Below are positions 25,189 through 55,541 of a DNA stretch of 64,000 nucleotides, piece after piece. The stretch lies in IMG/VR virus record IMGVR_UViG_3300005099_000065, positions 15,662 to 79,661 of that record, one strand, 5' to 3'. Under the pieces are notes generated by a model, which searched no databases, was not told where the DNA came from, and saw only the letters and a list, made by a program, of their open reading frames with translations. The position numbers were made by a program, and so were the translations under genes. Source of the DNA: a virus. Numbering within the stretch: the first letter of the stretch is position 1; each line of letters starts with the position of its first letter.

Positions 25189-26013
25189 TCATTCTTCTTG
25201 CGATTCGATTTCTTGAATGGCTTTTTTATACCACTCATTGCTCAAGTCTTTCCAAAACAATGTTTGCTTTTCTTTCATTTCCAAATACTCAACCAATTGT
25301 TGAGCAGTTATCCAATCCTTCAATCGAGCTGGATAACCTTGGGAATTAAGCTCCTTTTCTATTTGAGCCAAAGTCAAAATGTTCCTTTTACCCTCTTCGT
25401 CTTTCCAGCAATGTTCAAATTCCCTCAACCTTCCCAATATGCAAGGAAAACAACCCACACGAGCGAAACCCCGAGAATAAAGGGGATTGGGTTGAATGCT
25501 CCGAGAGCGCAACAATTGGAACACTTGAGGTACCGAATAGCGCAATAGAGGAAAATGACATGTGATCCGAGACAATTTGTTTCTCATTCCTTTTCTCAAA
25601 GATGCCCATTTTAGCCAATCCCGACAATTCATGTAAGCTGAGGTGTATTTGATACGACGTGAACGGCTTTCGCTTTTTCTGATTCCAATCCAAAGCTCTG
25701 TTATGTCATAACCAGAAAAAGCCAAAAATTCAGCCACTGGTCTGGTTTTCAAATAACCAGTGCAGAATCTGATTTTGGAATTGGGAAATCTTTTCCACTT
25801 TCGTATCAAATCAATCAAAGTGTAGGATGGAGACAATCTGATTATGCGCACACCCAAAACCCTTTCCAAATAATCCAAATATTCATATGTGAGCGAATGT
25901 TCCCAACCAGTGTCTGTGAAGATCCCTACCACATTTTCATTTCCATACCTTTCCACAGCCAGCAATAATGTAGCTGTGCTATCCTTACCCCCACTCACCA
26001 ACACTCCAATCAT
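25189..26013 (-). CDS. PAPS/APS-reductase family (PP-loop) protein
   Basis: SGGKDS PP-loop, FTDTGWEH, RFCT..LK..P, GIRKSESRSR and RVGCFPC. Confidence 0.88.
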   Translation of the reverse strand: MIGVLVSGGKDSTATLLLAVERYGNENVVGIFTDTGWEHSLTYEYLDYLERVLGVRIIRLSPSYTLIDLIRKWKRFPNSKIRFCTGYLKTRPVAEFLAFSGYDITELWIGIRKSESRSRRIKYTSAYMNCRDWLKWASLRKGMRNKLSRITCHFPLLRYSVPQVFQLLRSRSIQPNPLYSRGFARVGCFPCILGRLREFEHCWKDEEGKRNILTLAQIEKELNSQGYPARLKDWITAQQLVEYLEMKEKQTLFWKDLSNEWYKKAIQEIESQEE

Positions 26014-27720: not shown

Positions 27721-29130
27721 TCATAAGATTTTTGCATCCTTTTTCTCCTTCAATTGCAAAATTTTCTTTTCAATTTCTTTTTCATTTCCCACTATCACAT
27801 TCCAACCCAAAGCACGATAGATTTGAAATCTTTGTTGGCTGTGAGAAGCCAAATAATCATTCCCGTAATCCATACAGTCTATCAACAGTGGATTTGTGTC
27901 TTTGGGACGCAAAAGTCTACCAGCCCTTTGCACCACCGAAATTCGACTTCGACCTCCACCAGCTACCACCAGTACATCCAGCTGAGGAATGTCGATTCCT
28001 TCTTTCCACACGGTGGTGGCTATGACTATGGCGGATTGGTGGTTCAAAGCCTGGCGTAACAGGTGTTGAATTCGGCGAGGAGTTTTGCCTTGTACCAGCC
28101 TGGCTCCAGGAACAAGCGAAGCCAAAATTTTACCCTGCTCCACAGTGTCTACAGATATCAAAATCTTTCGACCTCTCAACAGTTCTACCAAATGAGCTAG
28201 CGTTTTATTTCTTTGTTCATTTTCAATTATTCCTTCCCTGCGTACCCAATACCAACTACCATAGACGGGACAGCGGGTTTTCACCATCAAAACAATGGGC
28301 TGAGACAAGTAAGATTGTTGTGTCAATTGTTGCACTTTTGCTTCATATATAATGGGACCTATGACACCGCAAGCTTTCATGTACTCTTCTGTCGTCCATA
28401 ATGTGTGAGGAGTGGCTGTGAGACCGATGCGAAATGGGATTTCGCTTTTGATTAAAATCCTCCGATAAGTATCAGAATGAGAGTGGTGGGCTTCATCCAC
28501 CATTATCCCATCGAAATGTTCCCTCAAATTTTTGATTTCATTTTCATCCCATCTGGACAAAGTTTGCACAGTGGCAATGGTGACTGTGGCTGGATAATAA
28601 TCCACCTGTCCTCCACCCCAAATACGAGTGGAAAAGAATCGGGAGAAAAACAAATATTGTTGGTGAAGCAATTCTCTGGTATGCACTATGAAAAGACATC
28701 TGAAATCCCGAATGCTGGCTATGATTCCAGCTGCTATGATAGTTTTGCCTCCACCTGTGGGGATGTGGATGATTCCTCTTTGGTGTTCGAGAGAGTAATG
28801 AACTGCTTCATTTTGATATGAACGCAACTGAATACCATCCAAATTGATTTTTTGCAACTTGTAAGATAATTTCATCTTTCTGATTTTCAAATAAGGATAT
28901 CTCTTTTCTATCTCTCCCAACAACCCACTCAAGAACCAACCTCTTTCACTTATCATACTCACTTTGATTATCTTTTTCCTCCACACTCTCTTTTTCCCCC
29001 ACCACGCTGGTTCCCATTGCACTTTTTTGTATATGAGTTCTTTTCTCAACCTTTCAAATTCTGGATGGTTGGGCGAAATCCAAGCCCAGCTAGGAGATCT
29101 TTGCACTATGTCAAAGGCTATTTTACGCAT
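27721..29130 (-). CDS. superfamily 2 DEAD/DEAH helicase (UvsW/XPB-like)
   Basis: LRSYQ, PTGGGKT, VDEAHH, GLTATP, EGIDIP and QRAGRLLR. Confidence 0.92.
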   Translation of the reverse strand: MRKIAFDIVQRSPSWAWISPNHPEFERLRKELIYKKVQWEPAWWGKKRVWRKKIIKVSMISERGWFLSGLLGEIEKRYPYLKIRKMKLSYKLQKINLDGIQLRSYQNEAVHYSLEHQRGIIHIPTGGGKTIIAAGIIASIRDFRCLFIVHTRELLHQQYLFFSRFFSTRIWGGGQVDYYPATVTIATVQTLSRWDENEIKNLREHFDGIMVDEAHHSHSDTYRRILIKSEIPFRIGLTATPHTLWTTEEYMKACGVIGPIIYEAKVQQLTQQSYLSQPIVLMVKTRCPVYGSWYWVRREGIIENEQRNKTLAHLVELLRGRKILISVDTVEQGKILASLVPGARLVQGKTPRRIQHLLRQALNHQSAIVIATTVWKEGIDIPQLDVLVVAGGGRSRISVVQRAGRLLRPKDTNPLLIDCMDYGNDYLASHSQQRFQIYRALGWNVIVGNEKEIEKKILQLKEKKDAKIL

Positions 29131-30157
29131 TGTTTGCCATTTGATTTTTGAGCTTGTTCAAATACCATTTCACCGTCACTCTCAATCCCTCTACCAAACT
29201 CAATTTCGGTCCCCAGCCAGTTGTTGTTCTGATTTTGAGACAACACAATCTGTATTCCCAATCATGACCTGGACGATCTGACACGAATCTTATCAATCTT
29301 TCTCTTTCAGCATTTCCCTCAAACTCATCCACCAAATGACAAATCAACTTCACCAATTCCAAATTTTGCACACTGAGAGTAAAGGCAGCATTTCCTATGT
29401 TATACGTGCCCAAAATACTTTTGCCTTTTTTCCTATACAATTTCAACAATCGATGAAGGGCAGCGCAATAGTCGCCGATGTACAACCATGAACGCCTTTG
29501 TTCTCCTTTGCCATACACTGGTATGGGGCGTTGCAAATAAGCATTGAGAATGGTTTTGGGAATCAACTTGGAAAAATCTTGTCGAGGACCGTAAACGTTG
29601 GTTGAGTTGAAAATCAACACAGGCAAATCATATGTTCGCTGATATGCATTTATTAAACACATGGCACCTGCTTTACTAGCACTGTAAGGAGACGAAGGTC
29701 GATAAGGGGAATCCTCTTCAGCCCACACCTTGTCTCCAAACACCTCGTCAGTACCTGCATAAAAGAACAACTTGCCTTCTCGAGATTTCCAAAATTCACG
29801 ACAGGCTTCAAGCAAAGTGAGAGTGCCTTCCATATTGATTCTGACGCAACGAAACGGATCTTTCAAACTCCTGTCCACGTGAGATTCAGCAGCAAAATGA
29901 AACACCATTTCAATAGGATAGAGAGTAAAGATGGTCTTCACTTGCTCCCAATCCTCCACTCTTCCCTGAATATGATAATAACGAGTGGGAAATTCTTGGG
30001 TCAGTTCTTCATTGTTTCCATAACAAATATCCAACTCCATGCTGTCCAAATTCACCACGTTCACATTGCGATATTGCATCAAAAGATTCCAAATCCAATT
30101 GCTACCAATAAACCCTGCCCCACCCGTTACCAGAACATATTTTTCATTCATTTGCAT
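29123..30157 (-). CDS. rfbB: dTDP-glucose 4,6-dehydratase
   Basis: TGGAGFIGSN, HFAAESHVDRS, GTDEVFG, SPYSASKA and DRPGHD. Confidence 0.92.
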   Translation of the reverse strand: MQMNEKYVLVTGGAGFIGSNWIWNLLMQYRNVNVVNLDSMELDICYGNNEELTQEFPTRYYHIQGRVEDWEQVKTIFTLYPIEMVFHFAAESHVDRSLKDPFRCVRINMEGTLTLLEACREFWKSREGKLFFYAGTDEVFGDKVWAEEDSPYRPSSPYSASKAGAMCLINAYQRTYDLPVLIFNSTNVYGPRQDFSKLIPKTILNAYLQRPIPVYGKGEQRRSWLYIGDYCAALHRLLKLYRKKGKSILGTYNIGNAAFTLSVQNLELVKLICHLVDEFEGNAERERLIRFVSDRPGHDWEYRLCCLKIRTTTGWGPKLSLVEGLRVTVKWYLNKLKNQMANNA

Positions 30158-30243: not shown

Positions 30244-31488
30244 ATGAAGATATATTTCAAAAATTCCAACGGGATTCTTTATCAAGGTCATGTGTTAGAT
30301 GTTTTGAAGCAACTGCCTGACGAGTGTGTGGATTGCGTGATAACTTCGCCCCCATATTGGTGTTTGAGACGATATCCTAATGCAGACACGATATGGGATG
30401 GAAAATCTGATTGCAAACACGAGTGGGAAGGAGAGTTTTGCAAAAAATGCGGGGCTTGGAAAGGACAGCTAGGGCTTGAACCAACTTTAGGTTTGTATCT
30501 TATCCATCTAGTTCAAATAATGAAAGAGCTGAAGAGAGTCTTGAAAAAAACAGGAGTCATATTTTGGAATCATGGAGATAACTATTCCAACAGTACTGTT
30601 CGCTGCGGTGCACCAGAGAAATGTATGTGCCTTCAAAATTTTCGTTTCATCACCCATTGCATTGATGAATTGGGATTGATTTTAAGGAACATCATCATTT
30701 GGTGCAAACCAAATGCCATGCCCTGTAGTGTCACGGACAGACTTGCCCTCATGTACGAGCCCATATTCGTGTTGGTTAAAGACCGAGCATATTGGTTTGA
30801 TTTAGACGCAGTGAGAGTACCTTATGCACCGAGTGGGATACAAAGGAGAAAATATCCTTTGTCAAAGTTTGGCGGAGATCCTCAAAATCCCACAGGCAGA
30901 TTTGGCAAAGGAGTCAAAAAAGGAAGTGAAGCAGTGCTTTTGCCTGAAATACCAAATCCATTGGGTAAAAATCCTGGCGATGTCTGGATAATTGCAACAC
31001 AACCATTTCCAGAAGCCCACTTCGCTACATTTCCTCCTCAATTAATAGAACCATTGGTAGAATTGGGTTGTCCTCGTTGGATATGCAAAAAATGCAAACA
31101 ACCTCGCTCCAGAATAGTGAAAACATACTATGAACCAGGCAAACGTTATTCAAATGAAAAGACTTTGACCGAAGAGGCTAAAAAGCAAGGTCAAAATCCA
31201 GGTCCTCAAGGAATGAAATATGGCAGAGCAAATGCCATACGCTACACCGTTGGTTGGACAAAGTGCGGATGCGATGCTGGATGGGAATCAGGTGTGGTAT
31301 TAGATCCTTTCATGGGCAGTGGTACTGTGGCTGTGGTTGCTACTCGGCTTTTGCGTCGCTGGATTGGAATAGAAATCAGTGAAGAATATTGTCAGATGAC
31401 CGTGAATAGATTAAAACAACAAGTAAGTCCTTTGTTGACGTTTTTGGCTGGATGGTCAACCTCTCACGATGAACCTGCAATCATTTGA
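30244..31488 (+). CDS. beta-class DNA methyltransferase (probably N4-cytosine) with Cys-rich inserts
   Basis: VDCVITSPPYW (motif IV SPPY), HFATFP and VLDPFMGSGT (motif I). Confidence 0.92.
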   Translation: MKIYFKNSNGILYQGHVLDVLKQLPDECVDCVITSPPYWCLRRYPNADTIWDGKSDCKHEWEGEFCKKCGAWKGQLGLEPTLGLYLIHLVQIMKELKRVLKKTGVIFWNHGDNYSNSTVRCGAPEKCMCLQNFRFITHCIDELGLILRNIIIWCKPNAMPCSVTDRLALMYEPIFVLVKDRAYWFDLDAVRVPYAPSGIQRRKYPLSKFGGDPQNPTGRFGKGVKKGSEAVLLPEIPNPLGKNPGDVWIIATQPFPEAHFATFPPQLIEPLVELGCPRWICKKCKQPRSRIVKTYYEPGKRYSNEKTLTEEAKKQGQNPGPQGMKYGRANAIRYTVGWTKCGCDAGWESGVVLDPFMGSGTVAVVATRLLRRWIGIEISEEYCQMTVNRLKQQVSPLLTFLAGWSTSHDEPAII

Positions 31489-34264: not shown

Positions 34265-34292
34265 TTCAATGTTTGTCAAAAACCAGTATAAT
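34265..34292 (+). promoter_or_regulatory. promoter TTCAAT-N16-TATAAT
   Basis: Read directly; upstream of the GGAGG SD and ATG 34312. Confidence 0.5.
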
Positions 34293-34311
34293 ATTTACAG
34301 GAGGAAAAAAG

Positions 34312-35802
34312 ATGGTGAAGGATTTGGAAGAAGAAAAGTTCGTGTTTCATTGTTGTTTACAGGGAAACAGATATTTTTTGTCTAATGTGTTGAAGTTTTT
34401 GAAACCTTATCATTTTCAGAGCCAATATCGTCGCAAAGTGTACCAAAGTTTGGAATCTTTTTTTAATCAATTCGAGAGACCTCCAGCTTTGTGGGAATTG
34501 AAAGATTATTGTTTGAGAACGATTAGGGATGAACAAATGAGGGAAGGGGTGGAGAACATTTTGAAGGATATTCCCGAAATCCAAATAAATGAAGATAATA
34601 TGGACTATATGGTAGATAAGGTTTTGAAGTTTGTTAAGAAAAGTGTTTTGGTGGATTTGGTGGATGAAGTGATATCGAATTTGAGTAAGGGGAATGTTGA
34701 ACAGGCAGAGGCATTGGTGAAATCTTTCAAAGGCGTTTCTGTCGATGATTCGGCTCATTTTTTTGGTTTTCAAGACATGATTGTGGATGCTTATTTGCAA
34801 CAAGAAGAGGATTTCACGCTTGAATTTAGCGGATTGTTGGGGGAATTGATAGGTCCTTTGCGTCCAGGTTGGTTGGTTGGAGTATTGGCGCCGAGTAAAA
34901 GGGGTAAGACTTGGTTTTTGATTCATACGGCTTTGGATGCTATGTTTTCGAGGCTGAAAGTGTATTTTGTTTCATTGGAAATGCCTCGTGTACAGTTGAG
35001 TCGAAGGTTCATTCGAGCACTTAGCAAGAGGGAGGACGATGAAGAGTGGAAGCTAGTAGCTGATTGTGTGTTGAACCAGGAAGGAACATGTAGCAGACCA
35101 GAAAGAAAAAATCGAATACCATTGAAGATTAATGGAGATTTTCCTCAGAGATATGAAGACACACCAGAAGGTTATCAGCCTTGCACTGCTTGTCGAGATA
35201 AAAAAGACTCTCATTTTCGTTTGAGTGGGTGGAGGGTGAAGAATTCTCAAAGAAATGTGAAGCCGAAAGCGGATGAGAATTATTACACTCAGTTTGAATG
35301 GACTAATAAATTATATGGCCATTTTCTATACGCCAGTAGTTACCCTGCTTATTCTGTTAGAATTCAAGACATATTGATGGATTTGAATGTTTTGGAATCT
35401 AGTAAAAATTTCATACCTAAGGTTGTGGTGATCGATTATGCTGATTTGTTGGCATCTTTGCATTCTTATGATGAATATCGTCATCAGTTGGACGAAATTT
35501 GGAAAGGTTTGAAAGGATTGGCTATGGAAAAAAATTGTATAGTCATGACGGCTTCTCAAGCTACTCGTGCGTCTATGAGTAAACATCTTTTGGATACGAC
35601 TGATGTGGCTGAGGATATTCGCAAGTTGGCTCATTGTGATTTGATGATAGGTTTGAACCAAACTGATCGAGAAAGGAAAACTTCGATTTTGAGAATCAAT
35701 GTGATTGCGAAAAGGGAGGGATTTTTCGATCCTAAAAGACAATTGAAATGTTTGGCTGATTTTGAACATGGAAGGCTAAGGATTGATGAAAGTTGGAAAT
35801 AA
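34312..35802 (+). CDS. dnaB: DnaB-like replicative helicase
   Basis: APSKRGKT Walker A, FVSLEM, VVVIDYADLL, TASQA, AEDIRKLAHCD; SD favours ATG 34312. Confidence 0.9.
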   Translation: MVKDLEEEKFVFHCCLQGNRYFLSNVLKFLKPYHFQSQYRRKVYQSLESFFNQFERPPALWELKDYCLRTIRDEQMREGVENILKDIPEIQINEDNMDYMVDKVLKFVKKSVLVDLVDEVISNLSKGNVEQAEALVKSFKGVSVDDSAHFFGFQDMIVDAYLQQEEDFTLEFSGLLGELIGPLRPGWLVGVLAPSKRGKTWFLIHTALDAMFSRLKVYFVSLEMPRVQLSRRFIRALSKREDDEEWKLVADCVLNQEGTCSRPERKNRIPLKINGDFPQRYEDTPEGYQPCTACRDKKDSHFRLSGWRVKNSQRNVKPKADENYYTQFEWTNKLYGHFLYASSYPAYSVRIQDILMDLNVLESSKNFIPKVVVIDYADLLASLHSYDEYRHQLDEIWKGLKGLAMEKNCIVMTASQATRASMSKHLLDTTDVAEDIRKLAHCDLMIGLNQTDRERKTSILRINVIAKREGFFDPKRQLKCLADFEHGRLRIDESWK

Positions 35803-35820: not shown

Positions 35821-36468
35821 ATGTTAATACCCAAAACAAAACAAGAGAAAAAACAGTTCATTTTGGCGATGCAAAAACTCAATGAGTTTTTGACAGCCAA
35901 AGGGGAAGGGGAGATTCCTAAAGCAGACATAGAGACTAACGTGTATGATTTTGTGGATGCTATTGAGACAATGGATGAAAAATGGTTGGATGAGCTTCCC
36001 GATGAAGTGATAAATATGTACAACCATTTGGTGTCTGACGAGTTGGCTGAAAGTGAACAGGAGAAAGTTGAAGAGAAAGAGGTTGAACAGCCAGAGCAAA
36101 TTGAAGAAGCAAAGGAGGAGGAAGCGCAAGAGGCTGAAGCTGAAACTGAAACTGAGGCTGAAGCTGAAACTGAAACTGAGGCTGAAGCCGAGGAGACGAA
36201 GTTCGAAGGAAAGCCAGAACCACTTCCTAAAGATGCAATAATTAAGAAGAAACCAACTCCACCTAAGAAACGTTCAAAATTCGAAACAATGGTGAGGGCT
36301 TTGCAAGCCAAATCACCTTGCACTATGGATGAATGGTTGGAAGAGGCTGAACGTATGTGGGGTAGGACAACCACGGATATGAAGTGGTACTTAAATGGTG
36401 TGGCTATTGTTTTGAAGTGTGTGGGTGTGTTAGAGGAAAAGGACGGTAAGCTTGTTTTGAAAAGATGA
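35821..36468 (+). CDS. acidic hypothetical protein with AETETE low-complexity linker and C-terminal wHTH-like domain
   Basis: GGAGGT SD; E-rich core encoded by GCTGAAACTGAAACTGAG repeats. Confidence 0.65.
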   Translation: MLIPKTKQEKKQFILAMQKLNEFLTAKGEGEIPKADIETNVYDFVDAIETMDEKWLDELPDEVINMYNHLVSDELAESEQEKVEEKEVEQPEQIEEAKEEEAQEAEAETETEAEAETETEAEAEETKFEGKPEPLPKDAIIKKKPTPPKKRSKFETMVRALQAKSPCTMDEWLEEAERMWGRTTTDMKWYLNGVAIVLKCVGVLEEKDGKLVLKR

Positions 36469-37514
36469 AGGAGTTTAAAAATCCCATAAGCGTTAGAGGA
36501 GACTATTTGTATTGTCCTTTGCCTTTGGATTTGGACACATATTGGAATTGTACCACCGATTGCGTGCATTGTTATCTCAGAAGGCTGAATTACGTGTGGG
36601 GCAAGGAGCAAAGAGCGTTAGACCCCATTAAGCTGGAAGCAAAATTGAAGACAGCTAGCCAATCCAAAGCCAGAAATGATTTGGCTGTAATGTTGAGACT
36701 AAAGAAAACTATCAGATGGGGAAACAAATCAGATCCTTTTCAAATTTGTGAATACAGATATGGCATTTCTGTTCAAGTGTTTCGGATTTTGAAGAGGTTG
36801 GACTGGAGTTTTGCTCTTTATACCAAGAATGTGGAATTGATGCAAAAGATGTTAGGAGACGAGCTTTGGGATGAATGGTGTTTGAAAAATGTGAGTATGT
36901 TAATCAGTGTGATGGTGGGTCAGGAATATGATTGGGTGAAATTGGAAAATGAGAGATGTTCGTCTTTTGCAAACAGATTGCATTTTTTAGCCAGATGGTT
37001 GGATAAAGGAGGGATGGGGGCTTTGATTTGCGAGCCCTTCATTCCTGGATATCATTCCATATCACAATGGGAATCATTGTTGAAGCGAGCTAAGACATTA
37101 GGCATCAACAGAGTGAACATTTATAATTTTCATTTCAATGCATTTGTGGCCAGGCGTTTGCACAAGCGAGGAATCGATATCAGAAGGATTTGGTATTACA
37201 ACCAGGATCAACAATGGAGACCCATTTTGAAAGTGCTGTTGCGAAAGGCTAAGGATATGGGTATGATTGTGGGCTGTCCTGACTTCGTGAACAGTGGTGA
37301 TTTTGTAGATGAATGTAATACGTGTTGCGGAGTGGATGTGCCTAATCCTTGTCGTTTTAACACCCATCATTGGAAACCAATGTGGTTGTTGGGTTATGAA
37401 GCAGATGATATAATCGAGCGGACATATGAGGGTTATGGGGATGTGAAAAAGGCTAGGCGGATTTTGCAAGGACGAAGTAAAGAATTTTACACTATGAAGG
37501 ATATTGTGAAATGA
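36465..37514 (+). CDS. radical SAM enzyme (SPL/Rv2578c-like)
   Basis: LDTYWNCTTDCVHCY (CxxxCxxC), SDPF, YTKN and EPFIPG. Confidence 0.85.
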   Translation: MKEFKNPISVRGDYLYCPLPLDLDTYWNCTTDCVHCYLRRLNYVWGKEQRALDPIKLEAKLKTASQSKARNDLAVMLRLKKTIRWGNKSDPFQICEYRYGISVQVFRILKRLDWSFALYTKNVELMQKMLGDELWDEWCLKNVSMLISVMVGQEYDWVKLENERCSSFANRLHFLARWLDKGGMGALICEPFIPGYHSISQWESLLKRAKTLGINRVNIYNFHFNAFVARRLHKRGIDIRRIWYYNQDQQWRPILKVLLRKAKDMGMIVGCPDFVNSGDFVDECNTCCGVDVPNPCRFNTHHWKPMWLLGYEADDIIERTYEGYGDVKKARRILQGRSKEFYTMKDIVK

Positions 37515-38278
37515 AACTGTATTATTATTTTCATTTTGGGGATTGTGTTTTGAAAGTGCCTCATAATGTCTCTCGGTTTTCTCAAACCAGGGTGCGGAAA
37601 AACACACCTCATTCTCAATTCATCTTTGATCATCGAGAGGATTTGATTTGTGAATTGAATTGTGTGAAGGATTTGGCTCAAAGCTTTTCTTTCACATCTT
37701 ATTTGGAGATGATGGCTGGTTTGGGTTTCAGTGCCAAACTGGTAAGCAGTATTCAAGATTTGAATGAAATTTGGTTGAATGACAAGGATGAGTTTTGTAC
37801 TACCAGCTTGGCTATCAATTTTGCAAATGAAGTGGGAAAGGAAATCATGATTACCCAGAGTGATGTTTTGGATTTGAAAGTGGTTGGTCGTTGGGATGTG
37901 ATTTTTATCGATTTCAACACTTTTTCTATGAAGAGATGGAATGAGTGGTTGAGATTGTGGGGTAATGTGAAAGGAAAGTTTCGTAATTTATGGTTAACGG
38001 ACACTGCTTGTTATGTGTGGACAAAATTTGGAGCTCAAACATTTGAGAAATGTTTTGGTTTCAAATCTTTGGAACAATATTGCCAGTCTTTTTCAAATTT
38101 GATAAAATCTACTTTAGGAGCATCGCTAAGAAGAGCAAGAATAGGAGCAAATGGCAAATGTGCCATTTTGGATTTCGAATATGGTTATGAGGGTGATTGG
38201 GATTTGAGAAAAGTGGACAAAAGTTTGAGTTTGAAAATAGAAGTGAAGTGGGGTTTGAGGAATGATTGTGAGAAATGA
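37511..38278 (+). CDS. class I SAM-dependent methyltransferase-like protein
   Basis: LEMMAGLG (motif I), LNDKD (II), QSDVLD (III) and WDVIFIDF (IV). Confidence 0.65.
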   Translation: MKLYYYFHFGDCVLKVPHNVSRFSQTRVRKNTPHSQFIFDHREDLICELNCVKDLAQSFSFTSYLEMMAGLGFSAKLVSSIQDLNEIWLNDKDEFCTTSLAINFANEVGKEIMITQSDVLDLKVVGRWDVIFIDFNTFSMKRWNEWLRLWGNVKGKFRNLWLTDTACYVWTKFGAQTFEKCFGFKSLEQYCQSFSNLIKSTLGASLRRARIGANGKCAILDFEYGYEGDWDLRKVDKSLSLKIEVKWGLRNDCEK

Positions 38279-39059
38279 TACGCCGATTGAAAAAGTGACT
38301 TCGTCTATTTTTGTGAAACGTGAAGACTTGGCTACATTGTCTCCAGGTCCTCCTTTCAGTAAGACACGGGGTTTGTTTCAGCATTTGTTTTTGCTTTTTC
38401 GTTTAGGAATCAGATGTGTGGGTTATGTGGAAACAGCTATTTCAATGGCAGGATGGGCTGTGGCTTGGTTAGGAAAAAAGATGAATATGAAAGTCATCAT
38501 TTTCGATCCTCAGTACAAAGATGATTCTAAATTTCCTTTGCCTTTGCATCGCCAAAAGTGGAAACAGTTTGGGGCACAGCTGGTGAAGGTGAGAGCAGGT
38601 AAAGCCAGTGTGAATTGGTACATTGCCAGACGCTGGATGAAGGAGAATGTTCATCAGCCATGGAAATTGTTGCCTTTGGGATTACCTTTGAATGAGACTG
38701 TGTTGGAAACCTTTGCGCAAGCGAGAAAGTGTATCAGAGATTTCCCTACCATAGTGGTTCCAGTTGGTAGTGGTACTATTGCTTGCGGGATAGCCAGAGC
38801 TTTGTATCGGAACCAAAAACTGATTGGCATTATGAGTCGCACTGGAGATGTGCGCAGAAAATTTAAGTTTGTGGTTAAGTGGTGTGAATATCCAACTCAT
38901 GTGGACATAGTGGACCCAGGATATCCTTACACCAAAAAGGTGGACATCAAAACTCCATTTCCTTGCAATCCTTATTATGATACCAAAGCTTGGCAGTGGG
39001 TGTTGGAACATGAAGATGAGTTGGAGAAGCCTATTTTGTTTTGGAACATAGGGGCATGA
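38262..39059 (+). CDS. PLP-dependent fold-type II enzyme (cysteine synthase/desulfhydrase/ACC-deaminase-like)
   Basis: FVKREDL...FSKTRG (PLP lysine), VVPVGSGTIACG phosphate loop, NPYYDTKAW and FWNIG. Confidence 0.82.
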   Translation: MIVRNDTPIEKVTSSIFVKREDLATLSPGPPFSKTRGLFQHLFLLFRLGIRCVGYVETAISMAGWAVAWLGKKMNMKVIIFDPQYKDDSKFPLPLHRQKWKQFGAQLVKVRAGKASVNWYIARRWMKENVHQPWKLLPLGLPLNETVLETFAQARKCIRDFPTIVVPVGSGTIACGIARALYRNQKLIGIMSRTGDVRRKFKFVVKWCEYPTHVDIVDPGYPYTKKVDIKTPFPCNPYYDTKAWQWVLEHEDELEKPILFWNIGA

Positions 39060-39060
39060 A

Positions 39061-40458
39061 ATGGAATATGAAGATTTGAAGCGCAAGTTGCAAAGGATTG
39101 TGCCTCGCCATGGGGTTTTTGCTTTGCCTAAAATGCCAAGGTTGAGTCACAAGGGGAGGAAAAAGAATTATCGTCAATATCATTTGGTAGAGAACAAATT
39201 GATAGAGCCTAGACGAAATTTGCATGAGGAGGAAATCAAATCATTTGCTGAAGTGAGTCTCAGAGCACAAGCATGCCCTATGCCTTTGAATTTGGACACA
39301 TATGATGGTTTGATTTGTCCTTTTGGATGTCGTTATTGCTATGCAAATTGGTTTCGCTTGAGTTTGTACACTTCGTTTTTCGACAATCCTGACCAAATAG
39401 GGATTCGAAGTTGCAACCCCGATTTCTTCAAGCGTCAGTTAGATAGATATATGAGTTACAGGGGTAAGGTTGAGAAGGCTGGTAATGAAGTGGCTCGGGC
39501 TTTCGCTTTGGAGATTCCTGTGAGGTTTGGAATCAGATTTGAAGACTTTTTGCCTTGTGAAGAAAAGAGGAAGGTGTCTTATGAGCTTTTGAGGTACCTG
39601 AAAGAGGTGAGTTATCCCGTGATGATAAACACCAAATCAACTTTGGTGGGAAGGGATGAGTATGTGAAGGTGTTGTCTGAAAATAAAGCTAAGGCAGCTG
39701 TTCATATGACTTTGATTACAGCTGATGAAAGGTTGCGTAAGAAATTGGAACCAGGTGCTCCATCGTTTAAACGCAGAATAGAGGCTTGTGCTTCTTTGGC
39801 TTCGGCTGGTGTTCGAGTGGTGGCCAGAATAGAACCATTTATGCCTTTTTTGAATGATACGATGTTGGACGAGTATGCTCAGGCTTTGAAGGAAGCGGGA
39901 GTGTCTAACATCACATTCGACACGTACAGTTATAGTGCTAGAGGATTTGTGGTGAGAGGGGCTTTTCAGATGGTGGGTTTGGATTTTGACAGGATGTTTT
40001 ATGCTGTGTCCGATTCTCAACCATTGGGTTCATTGGCTTTGGCTTTGTTTATGAATGAATTCAGAAAGAGAGGTTTCAGTTGTTCCACGTTTGATTTTGG
40101 AAATGTCCCATACAACGATCAAGACATTTGTTGTGAAGTGGGAGATTGGTTCGAAGGTGGATGGAATTATGGATGTGGAGTGATGGCTATTCGTTATATC
40201 AAATCCCAGTCACCCAAACCCGTCAGATGGTCTCAATTTGAAAACTGGGTGGAAGGCAAAGGAGGCTTTTTGTCTCCTGCTTTGAAAAAAGAAGTACATC
40301 AAATTTGGAATGGGGAGGGGGATGGCCAATTTTATCTGAGCTGGGCTGACGGTTTGAAGTGTTGTGGTTGGGATGAGGATGGTAGGGTTTGGCGCTGGGA
40401 TCCAGATGAAAATTATCGTCAAAAGATGTTTCAAGTATTGTTGGAGGGATTGAAATGA
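39061..40458 (+). CDS. radical SAM enzyme (SPL/Rv2578c-like)
   Basis: LDTYDGLICPFGCRYCY, INTKS, KLEPGAPS..RRI and RIEPF. Confidence 0.85.
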   Translation: MEYEDLKRKLQRIVPRHGVFALPKMPRLSHKGRKKNYRQYHLVENKLIEPRRNLHEEEIKSFAEVSLRAQACPMPLNLDTYDGLICPFGCRYCYANWFRLSLYTSFFDNPDQIGIRSCNPDFFKRQLDRYMSYRGKVEKAGNEVARAFALEIPVRFGIRFEDFLPCEEKRKVSYELLRYLKEVSYPVMINTKSTLVGRDEYVKVLSENKAKAAVHMTLITADERLRKKLEPGAPSFKRRIEACASLASAGVRVVARIEPFMPFLNDTMLDEYAQALKEAGVSNITFDTYSYSARGFVVRGAFQMVGLDFDRMFYAVSDSQPLGSLALALFMNEFRKRGFSCSTFDFGNVPYNDQDICCEVGDWFEGGWNYGCGVMAIRYIKSQSPKPVRWSQFENWVEGKGGFLSPALKKEVHQIWNGEGDGQFYLSWADGLKCCGWDEDGRVWRWDPDENYRQKMFQVLLEGLK

Positions 40459-41291
40459 TTTCATCTTCTCAATTGGAAAAAATATTTGCTCACGCAGCAG
40501 CTTTGCATTCAGAGGGAAAAATGAAAAATTGGATTTACGGGGAAGGCACTAAGATTTACATTTTGAACACAGATTGTTCTTTGTTGGTGAGGTTTAAAGT
40601 GCCTTGGGAGCTGGGTCATTTTTGCTTTTCAGCTCACGAATATGAAGGTCAAGAATTTCATCTTTCTCCAACTGGCATGATATTCAAGTCACAAGATCAA
40701 GATTACGAGAGAACAAAATTTAGCCCCGTCAATCCACCGTATTCTTTTGAATGGATAAAGCGCACGTGGAGTGTTTTGGATCAAAAGACAAAGGAGTGCA
40801 AACCAGTTGGAAAAATAGTTTTGGAAGACAAGGTTTTGAGATGGTTGGAAAAGGATCTTCCCCATACAGAATTTGTGTTGAAGGAGAAGGGATGGTCTTT
40901 GGTTCAACGCAACATATATACGGGAGAAATCATTCAGATTACCAAAAAACCTCGCCCTTTGACTTTGTTGGATAAGGATGAGGTGATGGGTGAAAGGAGT
41001 ATAGGTTTGAGGACAAATGACTTTTTTGCTCTTTTCACATTTGTGTCCAAGCTCAGCTTTTATTTTTATGATTTACCTTTTGCACAAGCTATGAATTTGA
41101 GCTTTTTTGATATGAGAGTGTTTTTGGGAGGATGTTTTTATGATTCATTAGGAGATTTGGAGGTGATTTATGGGAGGGAAATCCAGAAAGTCAGGCATGG
41201 TGAGCCGTCAGCTGATAGAAAAAATATTGAGAGAAGGAAAGAGCTCATCCAAAAAATCAAGGCAAGGCGGCGGCTCATCAACAAAGGTTAA
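40455..41291 (+). CDS. hypothetical protein
   Basis: 278 aa, ATGA-coupled to the upstream gene; no motif recognised. Confidence 0.65.
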   Translation: MISSSQLEKIFAHAAALHSEGKMKNWIYGEGTKIYILNTDCSLLVRFKVPWELGHFCFSAHEYEGQEFHLSPTGMIFKSQDQDYERTKFSPVNPPYSFEWIKRTWSVLDQKTKECKPVGKIVLEDKVLRWLEKDLPHTEFVLKEKGWSLVQRNIYTGEIIQITKKPRPLTLLDKDEVMGERSIGLRTNDFFALFTFVSKLSFYFYDLPFAQAMNLSFFDMRVFLGGCFYDSLGDLEVIYGREIQKVRHGEPSADRKNIERRKELIQKIKARRRLINKG

Positions 41292-41312
41292 GTTGCCTTT
41301 GGGAGTCAAGAG

Positions 41313-42098
41313 ATGAGTTATTTGGAATGCTTGGAACGGTGGAGAATTGAGCCCAATTTTTGGATGAGCGATGAGTATTTTGAGAAGGCTGGATTTAGAG
41401 AAGAAAGGAAAGGGAATGTTTGGTATGTGAGAGATGATGAAGGAAAATTGATGTTTCCTCCTGTGCATGAAAGTGTGGGTTTGATTGCTGGTTGCGAGGA
41501 TATTTGGGCTGATGTGGATGGTTTTCAAGGAGAAGGTCAAAAGGAATTTTTGGACTGGGAGTACATTTATGACCCTAGAGACTTTTTGCGTTTGGAAGGG
41601 GGCAAGTGGAGGACATTTCGTAAAAACGTGCGCAGATATGCTCGCATTCATTCGGCTAATTTGTTATATGAAAATTGGAATTCGGCTTCATCCAAATTGA
41701 CTGATTTGTCTGAACAGGTGGAAGACATTGTGGTGCAATGGCTTCAAAAAGACGAATCACGTTACATATGGGATGCTGAGGTTATGTTGGTTTATGTTCG
41801 GGAAGGTCAAAATCGTGAAGTTTTGTGGGATGTGAAGAGTAAAAAGGTTTTGGGGATAAACATTTGGGATGAAAACTATTGGTATGTGAATTTTCGTTAT
41901 TGTTTTTGTCGTGATGAGAAGTATTTGAGTGAGTATTTGAGATGGTGTTTTTATTTGGCTCGATGTTTTAGTGGTAATCCAAAGCTGGTGAATGACGGAG
42001 GGACATTGGGTTCTCAAGGTTTGGAGCGTTTTAAGGACAAATTGAATCCAATCAAGAAAAGGAGGGTATATTCATGGAGGGTAAGCGAGTCAAAATAA
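41313..42098 (+). CDS. DUF2156 / MprF-C-terminal-like GNAT-fold protein
   Basis: EYIYDPRDFLRLEGGKWRTFRKNVRRY and VNDGGTLGSQGLERFKDKLNP match the family's YxY...L.G.K and N...G..GL...K...P patterns. Confidence 0.65.
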   Translation: MSYLECLERWRIEPNFWMSDEYFEKAGFREERKGNVWYVRDDEGKLMFPPVHESVGLIAGCEDIWADVDGFQGEGQKEFLDWEYIYDPRDFLRLEGGKWRTFRKNVRRYARIHSANLLYENWNSASSKLTDLSEQVEDIVVQWLQKDESRYIWDAEVMLVYVREGQNREVLWDVKSKKVLGINIWDENYWYVNFRYCFCRDEKYLSEYLRWCFYLARCFSGNPKLVNDGGTLGSQGLERFKDKLNPIKKRRVYSWRVSESK

Positions 42099-43177
42099 CG
42101 AGACGTCCTAAACCTTACCCAGCTTTGAAGGCTGGTCAGATGGCTTCGCTTTTGAAGCCAGTGATGGCTAGTTTGAGAGAGGGAGAAGGAGAAGGAGTGT
42201 TGTTTCAGAACAATTGGATGGTGGGTGTGGGAGAGTATTTGATGGTTTGGTCGCCATTGCCCACTGGAGTGGCTGGTTGTGTGAATGGTAAATTGTTATT
42301 CGAGTTTGTGCATCGTTTGCCTCCCGAAGAGGCTTTGCAATGTCGTGTTGAGGATGTGCATTTGATTTTGGAGAGCAAGGATAAGCCCAGAAAGTTGAAA
42401 ATGAATTTGATTAGTGAAGTTTGGGAACCATGGGCAACACCACCAAAGTTGGAAGAGTTTTTACCCCTGGAAGAAAGCTTCTTCAAGGATTTGGAATTGG
42501 CGCTGGGTGGATTGGAAGTGAAATCCTTGATAGGTCCTTTGGCTGGTGTATGGATTGGAGAAAATAAAGTTTTGGCCACTGACGAATGTAGGGCAAATAT
42601 GTTGCAACGTCAGGGAGGGATTTATGCAATAAAACCTGGTCTGCTTTTTTCGGCTAGAGCTTTGGATTGTTTGTTAGATTTGAAATTGGCTTGTAACGGA
42701 TGGTTATTGGATAAGGACAGAAGGTGGGTTTGGTTTTCTACATTGGAAGGGATTTTGTGCGCTGTGAGGTTGATGCAAAGCGAAGAATATCCCACACAGG
42801 CTTTGGTCGAGTTGTTTTCTCGCTCTCGCCATTATGTTTCTTTCCCTGTGTCGGAGTTTGGCGAAGCTGTGGATTTGGCTCATGTGGTTGCTAAACATTC
42901 AGGAACCAAGAATCTCATTGTTTCTCTGATTTGGAAGGGAAACACTTTGACAATTGTGGGGAGAGGCGAATTCGGTTCATTTGAACAATCGATGAATTGG
43001 AAAAAGGATTCTAGCTTACCTGATGAAGGTGGTTTTGATGTGAATCCTGTGTTGTTGAAAAACATGATAGAAGGTTCAGTAGAAGCAAAATTTGGTTTGA
43101 CTGAAACTTTGGTGTTTGTTGAGGGCGAGGATTTTCAATATTTAGCACCTTTGATTTGGAAAAGCAATGAAGCTTAA
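42074..43177 (+). CDS. sliding clamp (DNA pol III beta-like)
   Basis: 367 aa with GCVNGKLL, LATDECRA, EEYP and FDVNPVLL clamp-like patterns; directly before the polymerase and clamp loader. Confidence 0.65.
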   Translation: MEGKRVKITRRPKPYPALKAGQMASLLKPVMASLREGEGEGVLFQNNWMVGVGEYLMVWSPLPTGVAGCVNGKLLFEFVHRLPPEEALQCRVEDVHLILESKDKPRKLKMNLISEVWEPWATPPKLEEFLPLEESFFKDLELALGGLEVKSLIGPLAGVWIGENKVLATDECRANMLQRQGGIYAIKPGLLFSARALDCLLDLKLACNGWLLDKDRRWVWFSTLEGILCAVRLMQSEEYPTQALVELFSRSRHYVSFPVSEFGEAVDLAHVVAKHSGTKNLIVSLIWKGNTLTIVGRGEFGSFEQSMNWKKDSSLPDEGGFDVNPVLLKNMIEGSVEAKFGLTETLVFVEGEDFQYLAPLIWKSNEA

Positions 43178-45689
43178 ATTGTTCGAGGGCGAACCAGATT
43201 GCATGAAGTGTGGATTGTATCGAGGGATTAAGTCTCCACGTATGTCTTACACTGGTAAGGGTGAGAAAGGAGTGTTGATAGTGGCGGAAGCGCCAGGTAA
43301 GACAGAAGATGAGCAAGGGGTGCAGTTGGTGGGGCGAGCTGGTCAATATTTTCGTTCTGTTTTGAAAAGTTATGGTTGGGATTTGGACAGGGATTGCTGG
43401 AAAATCAATGCTGTGAACTGTTATTGTTCTCACAAACCAACCAGAACGCAAATTTCGTGTTGTCGACCAATGGTTGAAAGAGCTATTAAGGAATGTCGTC
43501 CACGTTACATTTGGTTGTTGGGGGAATGTGCCATAGCTAGCTTTTTTTCATGTTATTTCGGTGATTGTTCTCCCACTTTGTGGAGAAAGTTTTGCATTCC
43601 TGACAGACGTTACAAATGTTGGGTAATTCCTTTGTTTCATCCCAGCTTTGTGATTCGGAATGAGAAGGATAAAGGGTTGAGTATGACGTTTGAGAGAGAT
43701 GTGGGTTGGGCTATTCGTCAAAGTGAAAAGGAGCGAACATGGATTGATTTCTCTCCCGAATCTCAAATAAACATATTGTTGAGTGAGGCTGATGTGATAT
43801 TGAAGTTGAAGGATTTGAAACAAAGTGATTTGATAGCCTTCGATTACGAAACCACAGGACTGAAACCATTTGCACAAGGTCATCGGATTATTAGTGTGGC
43901 AGTGAGTAATGGAAAAGAAACTTTTGTTTTTCCTTTTCAGCATCGGGCTTCTCCATGGCTGAATGACGAATCGATAAAGCATGAATGGACGAACATTTTG
44001 CTCGAGTCCAAAATCAAAAAAATAGCTCACAATGTTTCATTCGAGGATTTATGGAGTCGTGTGATATTGAATTTAGATGAGGTGAAGGGATGGTTTTGGG
44101 ACACGAAGTTGGTGGCTCATCTTTTGGACAATCGCAAGGATTTGACTCATTTGAAGTTTTTGGCTTTCGTTAATTGGGGTTTGGTTTGGACAGAGAAAGT
44201 GAAACCTTATTTGGGTGGCGCTTCATCTAACGAATTCAATAAGTTGGAAAAAGTGAATTTGAAGGATTTGTGTCTTTACAATGGGATTGATGCTTTGATG
44301 ACTTGGAAAATTTTTGAAAAGCAATTTGACGAGCTGAAGCATCGTCCCAAGTTGAAATCGGCTTTTGATTTGTTTTTCAAGGGTCAGTTGGTCTTGTCCA
44401 AGTGTACTAGCAGAGGGTTGAAGGTGGATTTGCAATATTATGAGAAGCAATGCAAGAGAGCTCAACGCAACATAGACAGATTGGTTCACGAGCTTCTTCA
44501 CGACGAGAGCGCTAAGAGGTTTGAGCAAAAGTACAAGAAACAAATAGATTTGAGATCAGCTTTGGATTTGAGAAGGTTGTTTTTTTACGTGAAAAAATAT
44601 CAACCTTTCAAAGTCACATCCAAGACCAATCCCAGCGTTGATCAAGAGTCACTGGAATATTTTCAAGAGGAATACCAAGACACTTTTGCCGAAAAGCTTT
44701 TGGTTTTGAGAAAATGGGAGAAAATCAATTCCACATATTTGTCGGGGATTATGAAAGAAGCAGTGAATGGCAAAGTACATCCCTTCTTTTCATTGGCCAC
44801 ATCTCGTTCATATCGTTCATCTTCTCATTCTCCCAATTTTCAAAACATTCCTGTGAGAGATGAGTTAGCTAAAAAAATTGTCAGAAGGGGAATCATAGCC
44901 CACAAAGGTTGGCAATTGATGGAGGTGGATTACAGCGGAATTGAGGTGAGAATTGGAGCTTGTTACCACAAAGACAAAAATATGATCGAATACATTTGTA
45001 ATCCAGATTCAGATATGCATAGAGATTGCGCAGCAGACATTTGGTTGTTGGACAAAAATGATGTGACAAAGGAGCTTAGGTTTTATGCAAAAAACCAATG
45101 GGTGTTTCCTCAGTTTTATGGTGATTGGTATGGGAGATGCGCTGAGAAATTGTGGAGAGTTTGTCGACATTTGAAATTGAAAAATGGAATGAAAGTGGAG
45201 GATTGGATAAAGACCAAAGGCATAACTTGTTTTGATGATTTTGTTCAGCATTGCAAACAAATGGAAGACAAGTTTTGGAACCAGCGCTTTCGGGGATATC
45301 AACAATGGAAGGAGGAGATGTGGGAATTTTATTTGAGAAAAGGTTATGTGGAGACATTTTTCGGTTTTCGTTTCACGGGCTATATGGATTTTAAGAGAGT
45401 GAACAATTATCCAATTCAAGCCACTGCTTTTCATTGTTTGTTGTGGAGTTTGATTCAGATAGAGAGTGAGTTGAAATCCAATGGAATGAGAACCAAAATT
45501 TTAGGTGAAATTCATGACAGCATTATATTTGAGGTTTGGCCACCAGAGAGAGAACAAGTGATACAATTGGTGAGGGAGGTGATGACCCAAAGGATTAGGA
45601 AACAACACGATTGGATTATTGTGCCTTTGGACATAGATATAGAAATTGCACCAGTTGGAGGAAGTTGGGATGAAAAACAATCAATTTAA
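43167..45689 (+). CDS. polA: family A DNA polymerase with N-terminal family-4 uracil-DNA glycosylase domain and 3'-5' exonuclease
   Basis: UDG: CxxC, VAEAPG..ED..G...VGRAG, HPS. Exonuclease: AFDYET, AHN, YNGID. Polymerase: PNFQNIP, VDYSGIE, NYPIQ, IHDS. Confidence 0.93.
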   Translation: MKLKLFEGEPDCMKCGLYRGIKSPRMSYTGKGEKGVLIVAEAPGKTEDEQGVQLVGRAGQYFRSVLKSYGWDLDRDCWKINAVNCYCSHKPTRTQISCCRPMVERAIKECRPRYIWLLGECAIASFFSCYFGDCSPTLWRKFCIPDRRYKCWVIPLFHPSFVIRNEKDKGLSMTFERDVGWAIRQSEKERTWIDFSPESQINILLSEADVILKLKDLKQSDLIAFDYETTGLKPFAQGHRIISVAVSNGKETFVFPFQHRASPWLNDESIKHEWTNILLESKIKKIAHNVSFEDLWSRVILNLDEVKGWFWDTKLVAHLLDNRKDLTHLKFLAFVNWGLVWTEKVKPYLGGASSNEFNKLEKVNLKDLCLYNGIDALMTWKIFEKQFDELKHRPKLKSAFDLFFKGQLVLSKCTSRGLKVDLQYYEKQCKRAQRNIDRLVHELLHDESAKRFEQKYKKQIDLRSALDLRRLFFYVKKYQPFKVTSKTNPSVDQESLEYFQEEYQDTFAEKLLVLRKWEKINSTYLSGIMKEAVNGKVHPFFSLATSRSYRSSSHSPNFQNIPVRDELAKKIVRRGIIAHKGWQLMEVDYSGIEVRIGACYHKDKNMIEYICNPDSDMHRDCAADIWLLDKNDVTKELRFYAKNQWVFPQFYGDWYGRCAEKLWRVCRHLKLKNGMKVEDWIKTKGITCFDDFVQHCKQMEDKFWNQRFRGYQQWKEEMWEFYLRKGYVETFFGFRFTGYMDFKRVNNYPIQATAFHCLLWSLIQIESELKSNGMRTKILGEIHDSIIFEVWPPEREQVIQLVREVMTQRIRKQHDWIIVPLDIDIEIAPVGGSWDEKQSI

Positions 45690-54443: not shown

Positions 54444-55541
54444 ATGAGAAAATTTGTTGCTTTATTTGTTTGTTCGGCATTGGTTTTGTGGGTAGTTTGT
54501 GCCATGGCAAAGGTGACGGGTCCTTGCGCTGATTGTCATACAATGCATTATAGTCAAGGTGGAAATGCAAATAATTATCCTTCTGGTGGACCTTTTCCTT
54601 CTTTAACAATAGGGGATTGTATCGGCTGTCATGCTGGCAATACTCCTATTAAAGGCACTAACGATGAGATTCCTGTCGTGTTGAGAAACACAGAGCCAAC
54701 TGGGACAGGTCCTAACAAGAGTCTGGCTGGAGGAGATTTCTATTGGGTTGGACAGGGGGATGATGCTAAGGGTCACAATGTGGTTGGTATAAGCGGCGAG
54801 GATCAAATGGGTCGTACTCCACCTGGTTGGGATCCAACAGACAATGCTGCTAAGGCTTATGGTGTTGTTGCTAATGGTGAAGCAGTTTGGAGCAAACAAC
54901 TCACTTGTGCTGGTACATACGGTTGTCATGGTTATCATGATGAAGAAAATGATTATCGAGCTATCAAAGGAGCTCATCACGGAAATGACGATTGCCTCAA
55001 AGCAGATACTTTGGATGTAAGCGAACAAGGTACTTCAACAGCCACTAGCTATCGATTTCTATATGGTATTAAGGGGATTGAAGACAAAGATTGGGAATAC
55101 ACAGCTCAGGATGGTTCAACAGACCACAATCAATATTATGGGGTGAATGGAAACACGAATCAAACTGCTCCCACCGTCAGCTTTCTTTGTGCCGAGTGTC
55201 ACGGTGATTTTCATGCGGATATTCAGGACGGAAACGTGTGGATTAGACATCCCACAGATATAGTTTTACCAGCTAAAGGTGAATACGAAAAGTATAATGG
55301 TGGAACAGGTTCAGCTAATCCTTACAGTGTGTTAGCGCCTGTGGGGAGCGATTTGAGCACTGGAGTAAGAGACACAATCAATCCAGGCAGTGCAGACGCA
55401 ATTGTTCTTTGTGTTTCTTGTCACAGAGCTCACGGTTCTGAGTATGATGACATTTTGAGATGGAATTACACTGGTGAATGTGAGGCTGGTCAAGGTGATA
55501 TGACTAAATGCGGCTGCAAAGTATGTCATACTGAAAAATAA
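54444..55541 (+). CDS. secreted hexaheme c-type cytochrome, OmcS-like
   Basis: Signal peptide. Heme sites CADCH, CIGCH, CAGTYGCH, CAECH, CVSCH, CKVCH. OmcS-like motifs CHTMH, GGDF.WV, KGHN, RHP and CHRAH.S. Confidence 0.85.
   Translation: MRKFVALFVCSALVLWVVCAMAKVTGPCADCHTMHYSQGGNANNYPSGGPFPSLTIGDCIGCHAGNTPIKGTNDEIPVVLRNTEPTGTGPNKSLAGGDFYWVGQGDDAKGHNVVGISGEDQMGRTPPGWDPTDNAAKAYGVVANGEAVWSKQLTCAGTYGCHGYHDEENDYRAIKGAHHGNDDCLKADTLDVSEQGTSTATSYRFLYGIKGIEDKDWEYTAQDGSTDHNQYYGVNGNTNQTAPTVSFLCAECHGDFHADIQDGNVWIRHPTDIVLPAKGEYEKYNGGTGSANPYSVLAPVGSDLSTGVRDTINPGSADAIVLCVSCHRAHGSEYDDILRWNYTGECEAGQGDMTKCGCKVCHTEK

Follow-up and report, generated by a model that had tools for sequence, protein, structure and literature searches.

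The stretch of DNA analysed here (the window, 64,000 nt) comprises bases 15662–79661 of the virus record IMGVR_UViG_3300005099_000065, a 79.7-kb phage (79,661 bp, CheckV completeness 100%), in which the final 50 bases of the record are repeated near its start. Its + strand carries a replication operon encoding a primase, a DnaB-like helicase, an acidic ORF, six further genes, a beta-like sliding clamp, a uracil-DNA glycosylase (UDG) fused to DNA polymerase (UDG-PolA), a clamp loader, a UvsY-like protein, a single-strand-binding protein (SSB), RecA and SbcCD. The six genes preceding the clamp, which encode two radical S-adenosylmethionine (SAM) proteins (rSAM1 and rSAM2), a methyltransferase-like protein, a pyridoxal phosphate (PLP) enzyme, a protein with a predicted clamp fold and a DUF2156-like transferase, are the subject of this work. 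They form a real, conserved and undescribed module, which probably serves the post-replicative hypermodification of bases in the phage DNA. In window coordinates, the slot and its flanks are as follows.

34273..35802, + strand: DnaB-like helicase, upstream flank of the slot (context)
35821..36468, + strand: acidic low-complexity protein, adjoining DnaB in similar form in module-bearing and module-free loci
36465..37514, + strand: rSAM1, radical SAM protein (349 aa) similar to spore photoproduct lyase (SPL) and PA0069; core
37511..38278, + strand: ORF2, class I SAM-dependent methyltransferase-like protein; accessory
38262..39059, + strand: fold-type II PLP enzyme, homologue of gp52 of phage M6; accessory
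39061..40458, + strand: rSAM2 (465 aa), paralogue of rSAM1; core
40455..41291, + strand: ORF5, extra clamp with a predicted two-domain PCNA/gp45-type fold at residues 1–234, followed by a basic tail; core
41313..42098, + strand: ORF6, DUF2156/MprF/FemABX-type double-GNAT protein; core
42074..43177, + strand: replicative three-domain beta-like clamp, downstream flank (context; PHROG processivity factor, E 0.0024)
43167..45689, + strand: UDG-fused family A DNA polymerase (context; Pfam UDG and PolA domains identified on the near-identical locus L267)

The original prediction placed six mostly coupled ORFs between DnaB and the clamp. All six were found at those + strand positions, and the description as mostly coupled stands, because the junction gaps from the acidic ORF to the replicative clamp (-4, -4, -17, +1, -4, +21 and -25 nt) range only from -25 to +21 nt. 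The scan for promoters and terminators revealed nothing in excess of shuffled sequences. Since a similar-looking ORF keeps its position next to DnaB with and without the module, the acidic ORF probably belongs to the replication context rather than to the module.

The gene order was found again at ~80 IMG/VR loci, and the arrangement is therefore not due to chance. The loci were gathered around rSAM2 (80 loci) and rSAM1 (50 loci), and genes were counted on the 44 distinct loci that span the region from DnaB to the clamp. The co-occurrence in related phages, which had been proposed as a check, was confirmed for a core of four genes: each of the 44 loci encodes both the extra clamp and the transferase along with rSAM2 and rSAM1 (replaced in some loci by the paralogue rSAM1b), with rSAM2 being present in all of them by construction and four seeming absences of the transferase being overlap artefacts. 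The PLP enzyme and the methyltransferase, both originally proposed as members of the pathway, are indeed present here, but they turn out to be accessory rather than core components (20/44 and 11/44, respectively). The other accessory genes encode an aldo-keto reductase (10/44), DUF362 (5/44), a glycosyltransferase-like protein (4/44), a DAO-like oxidase (3/44), a third rSAM (2/44), a second GNAT protein (2/44) and an amidoligase (1/44). The PLP enzyme accompanies the aldo-keto reductase in only one of the 10 loci with the latter (Fisher p 0.013, uncorrected for kinship), and each of these 10 loci also has the methyltransferase or the DAO-like oxidase, as would be expected if a single intermediate were trimmed in alternative ways. 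The accessory classes of the module, i.e. PLP enzyme, flavin oxidoreductase, amidoligase and acyltransferase, are those listed for thymine-hypermodification clusters. Another accessory pair (L055:4710-6169 and L099:7448-8925) comprises two methyltransferase folds, one of which we take to be CmoA-like, with carboxymethyl transfer as a possible function.

The conserved core of the module

The assignment of rSAM1 and rSAM2 to the radical SAM family was confirmed by profile searches (Radical_SAM, E 3e-11 for rSAM2; PA0069/Rv2578c-type matches for both proteins, with scores far under the curated NCBIfam cut-offs). The two proteins are paralogues (24% identical, E 1e-14). The CxxxCxxC motif (C29/C33/C36 in rSAM1 and C86/C90/C93 in rSAM2) is invariant across 68 rSAM1 and 62 rSAM2 homologues, and each family exhibits at least 4 further near-invariant cysteines (C17, C271, C287 and C288 in rSAM1; C72, C118, C341, C357 and C358 in rSAM2). 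This pattern suggests that each protein probably binds a second Fe-S cluster; two clusters are also present in the gp53 isomerase of Pseudomonas phage M6 (PMC8989533). Both proteins belong to the same superfamily branch of DNA-acting rSAMs as SPL and PA0069/Rv2578c, from which they differ by low scores (SPL family PF20903: 14 bits for rSAM2 against a cut-off of 27, E 0.02; no match for rSAM1), by extra invariant cysteines, by the pairing of paralogues, and by the lack of a full-length cellular relative, as the search of GTDB genomes with rSAM2 found only distant, partial ones.

An equivalence of these proteins to the M6 isomerase was not borne out, as the module rSAMs sit outside the gp53 clade and are not its orthologues. 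gp53 aligns with a module rSAM over 196 aa only (24% identity), a tblastn search with a module rSAM gave no M6 match, and the HHalign score of rSAM2 is 229 for a ParB-linked phage rSAM and 88 for gp53. In the FastTree tree, which is unrooted, carries long-branch warnings and does not show the direction of transfer, rSAM1 and rSAM2 cluster with the ParB-linked phage rSAMs apart from gp53 (branch support 99). Several variants of these genes were observed. In 13 loci (L054, L060, L061, L067-L073, L083, L102 and L116) rSAM2 is split just past the CxxxCxxC motif into parts of ~190 and 420 aa, in some cases with an inserted endonuclease-like ORF, resembling introns or inteins aimed at a conserved gene. 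A third rSAM (~500 aa), which is a sister of the ParB-linked rSAMs in the tree, lies 3' of the transferase at L004:11754-13268, L005:8688-10211, L061:14427-15941 and L091:15402-16862. The paralogue rSAM1b replaces rSAM1 in L016, L017, L020, L029, L059, L078 and L080, always together with DUF362 and sometimes with the glycosyltransferase-like gene, and the PLP enzyme is found in none of the 5 such loci counted.

ORF5, for which no fold had been recognised originally, yielded a predicted model (pLDDT 78) that matches the clamps of the PCNA, 9-1-1 and gp45 families (Rad9-Rad1-Hus1: Z 15.2, 208 residues aligned, rmsd 4.1). In the structure search the best 39 matches are all clamps, 42 chains score Z>=8, and the scores fall sharply after the clamps. 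Thus, according to its modelled structure, ORF5 is a module-specific second sliding clamp of the two-domain PCNA type. Its profile matches the three-domain beta-like replicative clamp of this phage only weakly, and the two proteins are distinct. The family comprises 214 clusters at 50% identity, while the atlas search with ORF5 returned no match. To our knowledge, there is no precedent for a clamp dedicated to modification enzymes. A terminal G-F/L-F/L peptide, which may serve proteins of this phage clade for binding to a clamp, was identified at the N-terminus of 35/49 UDG(-Pol) proteins and at the C-terminus of 5/16 module methyltransferases and 8/70 rSAM1 proteins, against a background of <1% per interior window; its strict form is absent from the proteins of the window itself. 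In P0186 (L268:8001-9701), P0198 and P0251 the extra clamp is fused either to DUF3102 or to an N-terminal region that resembles a fragment of a cytosine-C5 methyltransferase as judged by eye, with no Pfam match.

The identification of ORF6 as a DUF2156-like protein was corroborated by a match to LPG_synthase_C (PF09924, E 9e-6), the score of which (25.5 bits) is slightly under the cut-off of 27.5, and by the predicted structure (pLDDT 96), for which the best templates are 2hqy (Z 21.8), L-PGS (16.3), Sbb17 (13.3) and FemX (12.9). ORF6 shares the fold with the C-terminal domain of MprF/L-PGS, with FemX and with Sbb17 (Z 12–16 over ~240 residues), and its basic helix (R103-K104-N105) and Phe-Lys pair (F240-K241), both invariant in 114 sequences, may be equivalent to those of such enzymes; unlike MprF/L-PGS, it is phage-encoded and has no membrane domain. 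FemX acts on aminoacyl-tRNA with a basic helix and the pair F304/K305 (PMC12945691), to which F240/K241 of ORF6 may correspond, by motif and position rather than by residue-level superposition. Such features of the model suggest that ORF6 is probably an aminoacyl-tRNA-dependent transferase. It has 211 homologues, none of them among 50,697 GenBank phage records. Mom, the glycine transferase of phage Mu, is absent among the structural matches listed for ORF6 (a structure search, without a direct comparison to a Mom profile). No tRNA genes are present in this genome; five scattered ones were found in its relatives, tRNA-Gly in one relative only.

Accessory enzymes, known pathways and transferase-free sister systems

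The call of the PLP family was confirmed (PALP, E 4e-10), and the PLP enzyme was found to be similar over its full length to the gp52 decarboxylase of M6 (35.5% identity, E 4e-43), with the Schiff-base lysine K34, invariant in 25 module PLP enzymes, aligned with the gp52 motif. It matches 66 GenBank phage records, of which the 40 listed are M6/YuA-like. The module PLP enzymes form one clade (SH-aLRT 95), separate from the M6-type ones, in a quick, unrooted tree that does not show the direction of transfer. The substrates of gp52 are amino-acid:base conjugates in DNA, which must have a free alpha-amine to be decarboxylated (PMC8989533). ORF2 was likewise confirmed as a class I methyltransferase: all named matches are methyltransferases (atlas scores 0.93–0.97), the class I SAM-binding motifs are present, and methyltransferases from the PDB are matched with E about 1e-3. 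When the family is aligned, motif IV has the form D-F-x-x-F instead of the (D/N/S)PP(Y/F/W) version typical of DNA N6A/N4C methyltransferases.

The amino-acid-type thymine hypermodifications described in the literature consulted start from 5-hydroxymethyluracil (hmU), a kinase and an amino acid:DNA transferase (ADDT), with Mom as the single tRNA-dependent case. The M6 pathway to 5-NedU comprises gp51 (ADDT), gp52 (PLP decarboxylase), gp53 (rSAM isomerase), gp54 (kinase acting on 5-hydroxymethyldeoxyuridine, 5-hmdU, in DNA) and gp58 (thymidylate-synthase homologue) (PMC8989533, PMC5889632). We screened 24 genomes, 11 of them >=90% complete, for such entry enzymes, with M6 as the positive control. 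ADDT (PF18724) and the 5-hmdU DNA kinase (PF18748) were found in 0/24 genomes, with the M6 control positive, and the thymidylate-synthase homologue (PF00303) in 0/11 near-complete genomes, including this one, and in 2/24 overall. Queries with the gp51 and gp55 proteins gave no match in this genome. TET/JBP was found in 0/5 genomes in a search that, like the one with PF18723, had no positive control, and DpdA/TGT (PF01702) in 0/5 genomes with a tRNA-TGT model that may miss DpdA. Thus, the absence of an hmU synthase, kinase and aGPT-type transferase, initially noticed in the window, extends to the whole genome. Because ADDT, kinase and thymidylate-synthase homologue are absent, the module is not of the M6 type by membership, though the last enzyme is shared.

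As in M6, the genes lie close to that of the DNA polymerase, and the full-length gp52 homologue immediately precedes an SPL-like rSAM that probably binds a second Fe-S cluster; the module differs in the missing ADDT, kinase and hmU synthase, the two rSAMs outside the gp53 clade, the extra clamp, the aminoacyl-tRNA-type transferase, and the optional PLP enzyme with a clade of its own. Mom transfers glycine from Gly-tRNA to N6-dA in double-stranded DNA, and its product 6-NcmdA is the only known tRNA-to-DNA product (PMC13219725). ORF6 resembles Mom in being a GNAT-superfamily enzyme with an inferred aminoacyl-tRNA donor in a phage DNA-modification setting; unlike Mom, which acts alone on unmodified dA, it is of the double-GNAT DUF2156/MprF/Fem type and always accompanied by two rSAMs and a clamp. 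ParB helpers activate phage thymine dioxygenases (PMC13229309), which sets a precedent for the extra clamp acting as a helper. In both cases a non-catalytic DNA-associated helper would assist a post-replicative base-modifying enzyme, and the relatives of rSAM1/2 are ParB-linked, while the helper here has a PCNA fold and the catalysts are rSAMs. No published description of the module was found in the literature searched, which mostly leaves out subscription journals.

PLP-centred searches, by which the set is biased to PLP carriers, revealed four settings, including sister phages devoid of the transferase. In six phages that have a related DnaB and a related clamp (four of them close, two distant), this slot holds a PLP gene and 1–3 genes with the N6/N4-methyltransferase fold, with no rSAM, extra clamp or transferase; judging from their gene content, these slots are a candidate system of 3-amino-3-carboxypropyl (acp) transfer plus decarboxylation. 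Other phages encode a ParB-like protein and an rSAM, with or without a PLP enzyme, mostly just 5' of the terminase; the PLP gene is added at four of these loci.

L189:6986-9582, L191:4799-6688, L193:2512-5427, L194:1614-5860, L205:6923-8890, L213:4831-7864: sister slots with PLP and methyltransferase-fold genes
L190:2660-5369, L196:6322-9080, L192:4920-7798, L260:5004-8677, L257-L265 range: ParB-like and rSAM genes

One of the latter phages (G032, represented by L192; 36 kb, 97% complete) carries ParB-like, rSAM and PLP genes, and neither ADDT nor a match to the transferase profile was found in its genome. SAM is the only evident amino-acid donor shared by the two transferase-free settings, and the substrate of the PLP enzyme is therefore most simply an aminocarboxypropyl-base, which would be made by the methyltransferase fold in one setting and by the rSAM in the other. 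Enzymes of both folds that transfer acp to RNA, proteins and small molecules are known (Dph2, ArsL, TYW2). Given the kinship with the ParB-linked rSAMs, the rSAM pair of the window would do likewise, leaving the tRNA-dependent enzyme for a capping step. Such a step would resemble the terminal acetyltransferase of PaMx11 (PMC8989533).

Proposed pathway, alternatives and significance

The proposal of an undescribed DNA-modification pathway related to that of M6 is upheld by the co-occurrence, the gp52 homologue, the aminoacyl-tRNA transferase fold and the absence of hmU entry enzymes. We consider the best explanation of the whole to be a hypermodification module that a clamp of its own would keep on the DNA, an explanation scarcely less probable than the modification itself. 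The PCNA-fold protein would encircle the new DNA, perhaps with the help of the phage clamp loader, and recruit the enzymes. The rSAM1/rSAM2 pair would then attach an alpha-amino-acid group straight onto an unmodified base (the T methyl, C or A being the candidates) by radical chemistry, with SAM itself as the most economical donor (of the acp group). The product may be trimmed by swappable enzymes: here by PLP-dependent decarboxylation to a primary amine plus a methylation, in relatives by an oxidase and aldo-keto reductase or by other enzymes. Finally, the DUF2156 enzyme may use aminoacyl-tRNA of the host to cap the amine or hydroxyl with an amino acid. This order, with the rSAMs first, a SAM-derived aminocarboxypropyl donor and tRNA-dependent capping last, is suggested by the gene sets and favoured over one starting with the transferase, yet we put it forward only tentatively, as a possibility with less than an even chance. 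The modification likely serves to protect a subset of sites from host nucleases.

Several points weigh against this interpretation. The hypermodification itself is predicted here from genes, modelled folds and co-occurrence. Restriction-like sites are strongly avoided in the whole genome (observed/expected ratios: CGCG 0.07, CCGG 0.16, GGCC 0.24, GATC 0.44; CATG is also depleted, while GCGC, CTAG and GTAC are not avoided), so that any modification gives no blanket protection, and the protection, if any, is partial; the median CGCG ratio is 0.39 for the module loci and 0.93 for the M6-type loci, two sets that differ in G+C content. As for the order of steps, the transferase is conserved no less strictly than the rSAMs, which would be just as compatible with an early, indispensable step, and 2hqy, the structure nearest to ORF6, is uncharacterised. 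Both rSAMs have the canonical CxxxCxxC, and no sequence mark of acp- over adenosyl-radical chemistry was found in them. Most of the transferase-free contigs are partial (14–47% complete), and a donor enzyme may be encoded elsewhere, save in G032.

Or perhaps the module makes an M6-like base anaerobically? The thymine methyl in DNA would be oxidised by one rSAM (to hmU or an exocyclic-methylene equivalent), an aminoacyl ester made by the transferase would replace the kinase and aGPT steps, and the second rSAM would generate a C-alpha conjugate, from which the PLP enzyme would produce 5-aminoethyl-dU or a relative. Homology to gp52 and two probable Fe-S clusters as in gp53 agree with such a scheme, MprF/L-PGS, to which the transferase is closest among characterised folds, acylate hydroxyls, and dioxygenase-fed hmU pathways exist. 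The sites most depleted in this genome consist of G and C only, yet GATC and CATG are depleted as well, and the family median differs. As neither rSAM belongs to the gp53 clade, related rSAM and PLP genes are paired without a transferase, and we know of no rSAM thymine hydroxylase, we regard this route as rather unlikely. A somewhat lower likelihood is assigned to the order in which the transferase acts first, by Mom-like aminoacylation of an exocyclic amine of dA, dC or dG, followed by radical rearrangement, PLP chemistry and methylation. It is in keeping with the Mom precedent (PMC13219725), with the presence of the transferase in 44/44 loci and with its conserved FemX-like basic helix and Phe-Lys pair. 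It is disfavoured, because a gp52-type decarboxylase would find no free carboxylate on a glycine that is amide-linked or rearranged by Mom, and no free alpha-amine on the Mom product either (PMC13219725, PMC8989533); moreover, the best folds are DUF2156/MprF/Fem, with Mom not among the matches listed, and tRNA genes are lacking here, with tRNA-Gly in a single relative. Thus, of the originally proposed amino-acid transfer from aminoacyl-tRNA, the transfer as such is backed by the fold, while its place as the first step is less likely, as relatives of the rSAMs pair with PLP enzymes without a transferase.

The readings that dispense with DNA base modification account for the gene set poorly. A target other than DNA, i.e. 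tRNA, a protein (e.g. of the replisome or virion) or an amino-acid-derived small molecule, is improbable: the combination of rSAM, PLP enzyme, methyltransferase and aminoacyl-tRNA transferase is also typical of natural-product biosynthesis (PMC12945691), lipids, peptides or metabolites are the substrates of most DUF2156/Fem enzymes, and site avoidance persists, but a clamp fold belongs to the invariant core, the place inside the replisome operon is fixed, the known gp52 substrates are in DNA, and sister phages hold DNA-methyltransferase-fold genes in the slot. Even less probable is a role in DNA repair, in which the rSAMs would be SPL-like lyases of photoproducts or cross-links with a clamp of their own, and the remaining enzymes unrelated passengers; the weak match to the SPL family, the suitability of a clamp for repair and the fusion of UDG to the polymerase are compatible with it, but it leaves unexplained the invariant aminoacyl-transferase fold, the one-clade gp52 homologue and the mutually exclusive tailoring genes.

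Other genes of the window include an ORF similar to N6/N4-type DNA methyltransferases (30244-31488; SPPY and F-x-G-x-G motifs, cysteine-rich insertion), a PAPS-reductase-domain protein (25189-26013, E 2e-25), a domain type that also occurs in DNA-modification loci, an epimerase gene clustered with GT2, GT4-like and GT9 glycosyltransferase genes amid the virion genes (559-6693), and, apart from this cluster, an NDP-sugar dehydratase-like gene (29123-30157), the virion and DNA being conceivable targets. A multiheme cytochrome c with paired CXXCH motifs (54444-55541) hints at an anaerobic respiring host. The oxygen-sensitive enzymes, originally taken as a sign of such a host, carry little weight in this respect, since gp53 of M6 works in a phage of Pseudomonas aeruginosa.

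The transferase-free sister systems, the kinship of the rSAMs and the resulting model with the rSAMs acting first are new to this work. Since the hmU source, kinase and ADDT are absent and the decarboxylase of M6 is kept, the entry chemistry is new, if the module modifies DNA, and with 214 clamp clusters and no GenBank phage relative of the transferase it would occur widely in nature while having escaped notice in culture. If our interpretation is true, a small set of 4–6 genes would represent a new entry chemistry for DNA hypermodification, common to the ParB-linked phage rSAMs, and would give rise to a family of new bases across hundreds of uncultured phage lineages.

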